Source: a virus
Strand: one strand, 5' to 3'
Virus record (IMG/VR): IMGVR_UViG_3300028909_000018
Coordinates: 1 to 64,000 of that record
DNA: 64,000 bases
Positions 41,071 through 44,996 of the stretch are shown piece by piece. Within the stretch, counting starts at the first letter, position 1. Each line of letters opens with the position of its first letter. Below the pieces are notes generated by a model that saw nothing but the letters and a program-made list of their open reading frames with translations, was not told the origin of the DNA and searched no databases. The position numbers and the translations under genes were made by a program.

Positions 41071-42165
41071 TTAATGAATCTCTAAGTCATTGACAACAGT
41101 GAGTTTTCCGTCTCGTAGAAGTGTCAGGCTCACCTTGTCGCCAACATTATGCATCGCGACTTCCTTGATAAGAGCGGCAGGAGTAGAAATGTTGACCGTA
41201 TCAATTTTCAAAATGATATCACCAGCCTTCAGCTTATCGTTATGGTTAAGAATCTGATCATCATCCATGATCCCCTGAAGCCTGATGCCCTTATAGAAGG
41301 TATCACCGGCCACAAGCGACAACATCTCTGTATTTTCGATGATGACAAGGCCGATATGCTTCTGTTGGAATCTTCCCGTCTTGATAATCTCGGTCACCAC
41401 CACCTTGGCATACTTAGAAGGGATGGCGAATCCAAGACCGGCAGAAGTATGTGATGGTGAATATATGGCCTGATTAATCCCGATGACTTCACCATTCATA
41501 TTGAAAAGAGGGCCACCAGAATTGCCGGGATTGATAGGCGTATCAGTCTGAAGTGAATCATCGAAAGGCGAATCCAGACCTTCGGAGTTTTCACGATCAA
41601 CAGCCGAAATGACACCAGCCGTCAGGGTATGATTAATTCCATAGGGACTTCCCACGGCAAAAACTTGTTGACCAACCTTCATCTTCTCACTATCACCAAA
41701 GGCGACGGTAGGAAATTCACGATCAGTTTCGCTCTTGACAATCTTTAGAACGGCGATATCAGTTGCTCTATCCGATCCTACTACTTCCACGTCACGTTCC
41801 GATCCATCCTCAAGGACGATGGTTATGTTTCTATTACCAGAACCCTGAATGACGTGATTGTTGGTGATGATCAGCCCATCGGTGCTGATAATGAAGCCAG
41901 AACCGATTGCACCACCAGTCTTGTGCGGTGAAAAAGGAAGAAGAACATCCTTTTCTTTATGTTTCTTTATAATGATTTCATTGACAATATGATCCAGATC
42001 AGACATCTGTGTCCACAGAATAGGAATATCCAACTGTGGTGCATGGATGGTGACGACAGCGGGAGACACCCGTTGATATACGTCGCTTATTTCTTCTCCA
42101 AAAGCCGCCCCATAGGCGAATAGAAGAGCTACGGCGGTGACGATAAAGACGATAAGATACTTCAC
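41071..42165 (-). CDS. degP: HtrA/DegP-family serine protease with signal peptide and one PDZ domain
   Basis: GSGFII..ITNNHVI, DIAVLK and INPGNSGGPL catalytic triad motifs. Confidence 0.93.
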   Translation of the reverse strand: MKYLIVFIVTAVALLFAYGAAFGEEISDVYQRVSPAVVTIHAPQLDIPILWTQMSDLDHIVNEIIIKKHKEKDVLLPFSPHKTGGAIGSGFIISTDGLIITNNHVIQGSGNRNITIVLEDGSERDVEVVGSDRATDIAVLKIVKSETDREFPTVAFGDSEKMKVGQQVFAVGSPYGINHTLTAGVISAVDRENSEGLDSPFDDSLQTDTPINPGNSGGPLFNMNGEVIGINQAIYSPSHTSAGLGFAIPSKYAKVVVTEIIKTGRFQQKHIGLVIIENTEMLSLVAGDTFYKGIRLQGIMDDDQILNHNDKLKAGDIILKIDTVNISTPAALIKEVAMHNVGDKVSLTLLRDGKLTVVNDLEIH

Positions 42166-42586: not shown

Positions 42587-42661
42587 TGGAGGCGCTACTG
42601 AGGATCAAACTCAGGTCTCAAGATTTGCAGTCAAGCGCATGGGTCACTCTGCTACAGCGCC
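42587..42661 (-). tRNA. tRNA-Cys(GCA)
   Basis: GGCGCTG/TAGCGCC acceptor, loop CTGCAAA, encoded TCCA. Confidence 0.85.
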
Positions 42662-42671
42662 GAAAAAGTCT

Positions 42672-42902
42672 TGGTGGGGTAAACTGGTGTGCTTACCTCT
42701 TTCTTGACATCCAAGTATGCCGACCCCTCTTACCAATGCCATTCATTACGCCTAGTAGAGCAGTAATGAACTGGGGTAGATATCCATGATCCACAAAGCC
42801 TCTACTAAGGTGACGGATCAGAAGGAACATCTAGCTACTATCTTGCATGATGGCTGAGAGGGCTCACCTGTCATTTAATCCTCTTGCACAGAGGAACCAC
42901 CC
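42672..42902 (-). ncRNA. Unknown structured RNA (~231 nt) ending in CCA
   Basis: Nested helices with G-U pairs on the minus strand, 8-nt complementary loops, late box 42906-42912 directly upstream. Confidence 0.7.
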
Positions 42903-42912
42903 AAGTATTTAT

Positions 42913-42961
42913 CCTCTGCCGGGAAGATTCCCCTAGATGCCTTATCAGGGCATGACAGAAG
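42913..42961 (-). ncRNA. D-armless tRNA-Ile-like mini element
   Basis: CTTCTGTC/GGCAGAGG stem, ATGCC-CTGATAA-GGCAT arm, GGGA-ATCT-TCCC arm. Confidence 0.45.
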
Positions 42962-42963
42962 TT

Positions 42964-43037
42964 TGGAGCGGGATAAGAGATTCAAACTCTTTTCATTAGC
43001 TTGGAAGGCTAAGGCACAATCCATATACCAATCCCGC
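42964..43037 (-). tRNA. tRNA-Gly(TCC)
   Basis: GCGGGAT/ATCCCGC acceptor, loop CTTCCAA, TCCA end. Confidence 0.9.
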
Positions 43038-44697: not shown

Positions 44698-44994
44698 TGT
44701 GGGAGACTCGCGGTATCACGCGAATAATATACCCCTCTGTGCCTGTCGGTCAGTAGATAAATGCATGTCATCACACACATTCAGGGCTCCTATCTCATCT
44801 CCAAATAAGTTCTGGAGCTATGCCTAGCTTCAACGAGACCGATTTTACTCGTCCCTCCACTCCTAACATTAATTTAAGTCCCGCCCTCCAGATAGCGGTT
44901 CCGAGGTAGTTCCCGATCTCGTCCTAGAACACGTCTACCTGTGTTCAGGACCAGCCAGATAGCGACTCTGGCAATTCCGTAATCTTACTCTCCC
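44698..44994 (-). ncRNA. Unknown large structured RNA (~297 nt) with pseudoknot potential
   Basis: GGGAGA/TCTCCC terminal helix, at least 6 hairpins, loop-to-downstream complementarities, no credible ORF. Confidence 0.65.
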
Positions 44995-44996
44995 TC

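Follow-up and report, generated by a model that had tools for sequence, protein, structure and literature searches.

Does the interval that separates two tRNA genes in an uncultured T4-like phage encode a folded RNA of its own, and if so, how are its complementary hairpin loops, its CACCA end and the late-type box in front of it to be read? We analysed a 64,000-nt window (positions 1–64,000 of the 107.5-kb IMG/VR record IMGVR_UViG_3300028909_000018), which belongs to a distant T4-like myovirus whose baseplate genes encode a wedge protein resembling gp53 and the OB domain of gp5. The cultured phages nearest to it by baseplate protein, including Caulobacter phage Cr30, Sinorhizobium phage phiM12, Pelagibacter phage HTVC008M and cyanophages, reach only ~25% identity. 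The locus lies on the minus strand within a tRNA island, flanked by tRNA-Gly(UCC) upstream (42964–43037, minus strand; Rfam tRNA model and ARAGORN) and tRNA-Cys(GCA) downstream (42590–42661, minus strand; Rfam tRNA model, 46.6 bits; called by ARAGORN in its mitochondrial mode only and missed by the standard mode). Two tRNA-Lys genes and a tRNA-Glu gene stand farther upstream in the island. Directly downstream of the island is a gene for a DegQ/HtrA-type serine protease with a PDZ domain (41071–42165, minus strand), whose nearest non-phage relatives are bacterial DegQ proteins (35–47% identity).

A structured RNA between tRNA-Gly and tRNA-Cys

An initial annotation, made from the letters of the DNA, had proposed a structured non-coding RNA on the minus strand at 42672–42912. 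The 233-nt body analysed here (42672–42904, minus strand, with approximate ends; its homolog, described below, is at L002:5248–5488) has a minimum free energy of −80.9 kcal/mol (z = −3.4), equalled by none of 200 shuffles. Together with the consensus energy of the two versions (z = −4.55, below), this value bears the proposal out. The motifs listed at the time, CCTCT/AGAGG, TGACA/TGTCA, TGATCC/GGATCA (42787–42820) and TTCATTAC/GTAATGAA (42742–42770), are all present on the minus strand.

The fold is closed by a 5-bp terminal helix, P1, whose 5' strand GGUGG (42897–42901, minus strand) pairs with CCACC (42673–42677, minus strand), followed by A42672; in the homolog the helix is GGUGG/UCACC. Next to the 5' strand stands the hairpin P2 (UCCUC/GAGGA; 42879–42895, minus strand). 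The central domain carries a long arm (42777–42833, minus strand), in which P5 (UAGAU/AUCUA plus an inner UCC/GGA) is capped by P6 (UGAUCC/GGAUCA), and a short arm, P7, (G)UUCAUUAC/GUAAUGAA(U) (42741–42771, minus strand). Abutting the 3' strand of P1 is a 3' hairpin, P8 (GGUAAGC/GUUUACC; 42678–42697, minus strand).

When 42672–42912 was searched against Rfam 15 at E ≤ 10, no family was matched, the tRNAs alone giving matches in the region. ARAGORN made no call within the RNA in its tRNA and tmRNA modes; its mitochondrial mode made one call (Pro) inside the window version and none inside the homolog. The earlier statement that RNase P, tmRNA and riboswitch signatures are lacking agrees with these results, and RNase P, 6S, SRP and Y RNAs, riboswitches and ribozymes were all rejected on the Rfam result. 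The sole overlapping open reading frame is antisense, 107 aa long, without a Pfam match and lost in the homolog, and a coding region was rejected on these grounds; indels of 1, 2, 4 and 13 nt separate the two versions. An RNA on the opposite strand was rejected as well, since the G.U pairs and the weaker fold of that strand (−73.8 kcal/mol) speak against it, as were decayed tRNA genes, since alignment shuffling puts the fold under selection. We conclude that 42672–42904 (minus strand) is a genuine structured non-coding RNA of ~230 nt that lies outside all Rfam families.

A rare family with two known lineages

Homologs were sought in IMG/VR by way of the protease neighbour, the gp5 neighbour, an alignment of a 118-aa neighbour and six DNA patterns. 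One other version of the RNA was found in all collections searched, on IMG/VR contig 3300029922_000439 (L002) and on two JGI contigs (L026 and L027) whose RNA is identical to that of L002. The neighbour-protein and DNA-pattern searches in IMG/VR returned nothing beyond this second lineage or chance matches. All 117 loop-pattern matches in IMG/VR were rejected by nhmmer, and the candidate L147 was rejected by covariance model. A pattern match in a JGI metagenome (L025) was a chance match in a coding region, and a GTDB match on a Bellilinea contig, where, as for L025, only the 31-nt 5' pattern fits, is probably a chance match as well. Distant-mode blastn against cultured phages, T4 included, matched tRNA-Gly alone. 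The covariance model R1 was run on the 107.5-kb genome, where it brought up no paralog, and on related phage records, where it matched nothing. A 66%-identical protease (P0003) encoded on an ENA contig implies that there is probably a third lineage. The RNA represents a new, rare and narrowly distributed family of a known general kind, the phage tRNA-island RNAs. Such rarity, with two lineages, limits comparative proof and suggests a niche role; covariation statistics are weak because only two distinct sequences are available.

The fold is conserved while the sequence drifts

The window version and its homolog are 73% identical over aligned sites (27% differing), with 32 gap columns, and the four-fold degenerate sites of the flanking genes are 76–77% identical (24% differing). 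Because these values are so close, the primary sequence of the RNA as a whole is judged to drift at about the neutral rate. The pairing behaves differently. A core of six helices comprises 38 pairs, every one of which is standard in both versions (76 of 76 cells), against 31–50% of cells paired in slid controls. Neutral simulation from the window sequence kept 25.6–29.6 of the 38 pairs and all 38 in none of 20,000 runs. The core holds four double changes, of which three fall in the inner part of P5 (UCC/GGA to GUU/AAC) and the fourth in P2 (U-A to C-G), along with five one-sided changes; P6 is invariant. Divergence is 17% at paired columns versus 33% at unpaired ones, and all 32 gap columns (32/32) are unpaired.

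This 38-pair core was selected with both sequences in view and is to that extent circular, and two less biased tests were therefore applied, column shuffling and a test of helices drawn from the window alone. With the first, the two-sequence consensus energy was −43.55, and column-shuffled alignments averaged −25.8 ± 3.9 (z = −4.55; 0 of 150); the structure conservation index (SCI) was 0.55 compared with 0.39 ± 0.06. With the second, a strict column-by-column test of the helices in the initial annotation, 42 of 55 pairs were kept against 37–38.6 expected by drift, a difference that is not significant taken by itself (p about 0.1–0.2). The losses fell in the GGGTGG/TTACCC terminal stem, in one long-range helix and in a register shift of P7. 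The inner half of P7 and the whole of P8 escape column-wise scoring, yet both point the same way as the core. For the inner four pairs of P7, the window has UUAC/GUAA where the homolog has GUUG/CAAC. No alignment of the two genomes is possible from P8 through tRNA-Cys. P8 is replaced in the homolog by an entirely different hairpin (GACUU/AAGUC) at the same place, still directly abutting the 3' strand of P1, and within this otherwise replaced segment the YCACC-A of P1 and the spacing of 10 nt to the tRNA persist. The fold is thus conserved while the sequence drifts about neutrally.

The overall sequence constraint on this RNA is weak relative to that on a neighbouring one. A second ORF-free structured RNA lies at 44698–44996 (minus strand), upstream of the tRNA-Lys pair (fold z = −2.8), and its layout, in which a 3' hairpin abuts the closing helix, is that of the 42672–42904 RNA. 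The sole Rfam match it gives is sub-threshold (sR1, 18.1 bits versus a gathering score of 45). Compared with L027 it is ~90% or more identical, as estimated by eye, where silent sites are 76% identical, and it is therefore under much stronger sequence constraint than the 42672–42904 RNA.

Two arms with complementary loops

The initial annotation had singled out perfectly complementary segments in the two arm loops, TAGTAGAG (42800–42807) and CTCTACTA (42753–42760), one in each loop. They are there, and the two arms with their complementary loops are kept in the sole homolog. When the flanking C-G and U.G pairs are counted, the complementarity reaches 10 bp in both versions, joining the loop-1 segment CUUAGUAGAG (42800–42809, minus strand) to the loop-2 segment CUCUACUAGG (42751–42760, minus strand). 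The isolated loop duplex is predicted at −14.2 kcal/mol in the window and −15.0 kcal/mol in the homolog, compared with at most −4.5 kcal/mol for local alternatives. An 8-nt inverted repeat is in itself unremarkable, being present in 31% of dinucleotide shuffles; what is specific here is that each complementary half occupies a hairpin loop and that the relative retains both. The chance of an 8-mer match between these two loops is ~1e-3 (analytic, roughly 90 placements × 4^-8). Three loop substitutions separate the versions, all of them one-sided transitions that keep standard pairs (U.G to C-G, A-U to G.U and G-C to G.U), and the putative loop–loop pairing is compatible with all three.

Conceivably, the loops do not pair with each other at all. 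They might instead be closed by local stems, CCUU/GAGG around an AGUA tetraloop and GCU/GGC around the loop CUACUA, and offer the loop bases to another partner, a reading we regard as possible and hold only tentatively. Two of the loop substitutions (U to C and A to G) also amount to a U-A to C-G double change in the loop-1 stem CCUU/GAGG, as this arrangement would have it, and minimum-energy folds show the stem extensions. These stems are weak, however (−2.7 and −1.8 kcal/mol in the window, −2.9 and 0 kcal/mol in the homolog, against −14 to −15 kcal/mol for the inter-loop duplex), and in the homolog the loop-2 extension consists of three wobble pairs.

Were the loops to pair, they could also do so between molecules, giving dimers, rings or larger homo-oligomers in the manner of phi29 pRNA, manA, ROOL and GOLLD. 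The loop duplex of 10 bp is strong; in the homolog loop 2 has 12 nt, of which 10–11 nt would lie in the duplex, tight for an intramolecular contact, and the two arms are unequal (about 15 versus 9 bp). There are precedents in ROOL and GOLLD (PMC12286853) and in manA (bioRxiv 10.64898/2026.07.01.735769). The sequence nevertheless fits a contact within one molecule equally well, a triangle with sides of about 42, 25 and 28 Å (our own estimate) permits such a contact, and there is no Rfam similarity to the oligomerising families. Pairing between molecules seems rather unlikely. The fuller version of this idea, a late phage RNA that self-assembles through its 10-nt loops into defined homo-oligomers (rings or cages) after being freed from its precursor by tRNA punctuation, strikes us as similarly doubtful; if true, it would be a much smaller, unrelated counterpart of ROOL, GOLLD and manA in a T4-like phage.

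The genome also encodes an amber-suppressor tRNA (anticodon CUA; whole-genome positions 97847–97924, minus strand) with the anticodon loop UUCUAAA. A link between this tRNA and the UAGUAG/CUACUA of the RNA loops was considered; it is unsupported and may be coincidence.

A late-type box and the flanking tRNA structures

The RNA had been described as driven by a late promoter, on the strength of an ATAAATA 3 nt upstream of GGGTGG. This box is present (42906–42912, minus strand) and agrees with TATAAATA at seven of eight positions, which makes it a candidate T4-type late promoter; with one more position, GATAAATA at 42906–42913 classes as a TATAAATA-like late box. In T4 the late box occupies −13 to −6, and its first T is poorly kept among other T4-like phages (PMC1524935). 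The window contains 35 copies of ATAAATA, compared with 13 expected. The motif stands 10–25 nt before the ribosome-binding sites of structural (late) genes and 1–13 nt before most tRNAs, a placement in keeping with the T4-type late box. The copy in front of the RNA falls within a block (42893–42933) that is identical between the two versions at 41 of 41 positions, an event with a chance of about 1e-5 at 76% neutral identity. Late-promoter drive of the RNA from this box is plausible. A T4-type start 6 nt past the box would lie near 42900 and leave a P1 of 4 bp.

Across the whole genome, ATAAATA boxes likewise precede most tRNAs by 1–13 nt, for example at 97932, 98027, 99810 and 100631 (minus strand). 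The box at 97932 stands 1 nt before the suppressor tRNA, too close for a start 6 nt downstream; either the spacing differs in this phage or the AU-rich box also serves processing.

Between tRNA-Gly and the box lies a tRNA-like element without a D arm (42913–42961, minus strand), a three-way junction with an 8-bp closing helix (CUUCUGUC/GGCAGAGG), a 5-bp arm carrying the anticodon-style 7-nt loop CUGAUAA, and a GGGG/CCC hairpin. The element is kept in L002 with one double and three one-sided changes, and its copy there is called Ile(gat) by the mitochondrial mode of ARAGORN. The tRNA-Gly gene (42964–43037) differs from its counterpart at L002:5111–5186 at one place only, where L002 has 2 nt (TA) inserted ahead of the anticodon stem. 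The tRNA-Cys(GCA) gene (42590–42661, minus strand) and its counterpart at L002:5498–5572 are unalignable, the gene having been swapped between the lineages with both flanks conserved. The spacer between the RNA and tRNA-Cys (42662–42671, minus strand) measures 10 nt in both versions and differs in sequence.

With tRNA structures on both sides and a fixed 10-nt spacer, the RNA could be taken for a structured spacer of the tRNA operon that has no function in trans and whose fold guides or protects the processing of tRNA-Gly, the tRNA-like element and tRNA-Cys. Its roughly neutral drift in primary sequence and the very narrow family would suit such a role. Yet ~230 nt with six conserved helices, complementary loops and a conserved box of its own are more than a spacer needs, and the other tRNAs in this genome are packed 2–12 nt apart. 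We consider this explanation improbable.

The terminal helix contains the CACC

The 5' GGGTGG had been paired with TTACCC before the CACCA, as if the RNA were matured like a tRNA to a CCA end. This stem is outcompeted by P1 (5 bp, GGUGG/CCACC) and the abutting P8 (7 bp), both of which have pair probabilities of ~1.0 in the window, and in the homolog only two of its six pairs can form. The CACC is itself a strand of P1 (GGUGG/YCACC plus one A), and thus the CCA is not free and the conserved CACCA needs no reading as a CCA end. We looked for a 7-bp acceptor stem with an unpaired NCCA and found instead the conserved 5-bp terminal helix that contains CACC; a T arm with a T-loop (GUUCRANYC) was not found either, the loop of the 3' hairpin being ACACCA and that of the homolog an unrelated 19-nt loop. 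The tRNA and tmRNA covariance models gave no match in 42672–42912 at E ≤ 10. It is accordingly very improbable that the RNA is tRNA-like, has a free CCA end and undergoes aminoacylation or handling by tRNA enzymes. Although CACCA stands exactly 10 nt before tRNA-Cys in both versions, and P1 and P8 together stack over 12 bp in the window, as long as an acceptor/T minihelix, the proposed terminal stem is outcompeted in the window and absent from the homolog, and T-loop, D-loop and tRNA/tmRNA model signatures are all lacking.

The central junction can be drawn in two ways. Long-range helices proposed earlier, TGACA/TGTCA and GAGCCCTCT/AGAGGGGTC, suit the window (−80.3 kcal/mol) and not the homolog (−57.6 kcal/mol); both strands of the latter helix are present, though it contains a G.G mismatch and it too fits the window and not the homolog. 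A model with local hairpins around P7 (UGACRGG/CCUSUCA, GCCAUC/GRUAGY and CCCC/GGGG) gives −72.1 and −71.6 kcal/mol for the two versions. Summed energies favour this local model; the long-range helix has a single C-G to G-C double change in its favour.

A probable stand-alone RNA gene, with loops proposed to join within one molecule

Our best explanation, to which we give a probability of roughly 0.55, is that a stand-alone gene in the tRNA island specifies a stable RNA of ~230 nt, with its loops paired intramolecularly and with an accessory role. The architecture of the RNA is a 5-bp P1 stacked on the abutting P8, a 5' hairpin P2 and a central domain bearing the long arm P5–P6 and the short arm P7. 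The two arm loops would pair over 10 bp within one molecule and so lock a compact shape. Synthesis would be late, from a gp55-type ATAAATA box of its own and/or as part of a polycistronic tRNA precursor. As the layout suggests, the 3' end may arise by RNase P cleavage 10 nt downstream, at tRNA-Cys, after which exonucleases would trim it as far as the P1/P8 clamp. The RNA would then most likely have an accessory function in the tRNA island, as is presumed for RNAs C and D of T4; its most likely role, though this is a guess, would be to scaffold or decoy a host or phage factor directed at tRNAs.

Comparison with known phage RNAs

RNAs C and D of phage T4 were found in the 1970s, and the roles of folded RNAs in phage tRNA islands have stayed unexplained since. 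The present RNA joins this growing set as a compact, well-delimited new example, with a terminal clamp, two arms, a 10-bp loop–loop match and a putative late-type promoter box of its own. The pool of candidates is large, a survey of structured RNAs in viruses listing 10,006 (PMC10690425).

An analogy to T4 RNAs C and D, ROOL and GOLLD had been suggested at the outset, and the position of the RNA, a non-coding RNA in a tRNA island, bears it out. RNA C and RNA D (species 1 and 2; rnaC/rnaD, at NC_000866 70908–71171) are small stable RNAs whose roles are unknown (PMC3014915). Like them, the present RNA is a non-coding RNA inside the tRNA cluster of a T4-type phage and adjoins tRNA genes. It shares with them neither sequence similarity, by distant-mode blastn, nor a common motif, by visual and fold comparison. 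RNA C is 139 nt long and has a canonical T arm, CCGGGUUCGAAUCCCGG, in contrast to the ~230 nt, the lack of a T-loop and the two arms with complementary loops seen here.

ROOL and GOLLD are RNAs of phages and prophages that often lie near tRNA islands and have kissing loops central to their architecture; one such loop, at first interpreted as a tertiary contact, turned out to be quaternary (PMC12286853). Self-assembly by way of kissing loops is a recent result for both of them, as it is for manA. The present RNA resembles them in its tRNA-island setting and in its complementary, kissing-type loops. Unlike it, they are 2–4 times larger, and no Rfam model, theirs included, matches here at E ≤ 10.

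The pRNA of phage phi29 is a short phage RNA in which two complementary loops of one molecule pair between molecules. The manA RNAs of cyanophages are also short and assemble into pentamers and 60-mers through intermolecular kissing loops (bioRxiv 10.64898/2026.07.01.735769). With both, the present RNA has in common that it is a short phage RNA with two mutually complementary loops; it differs from both in matching no Rfam model, in its fold and type of phage, and in a kiss that, at 10 bp, is much longer.
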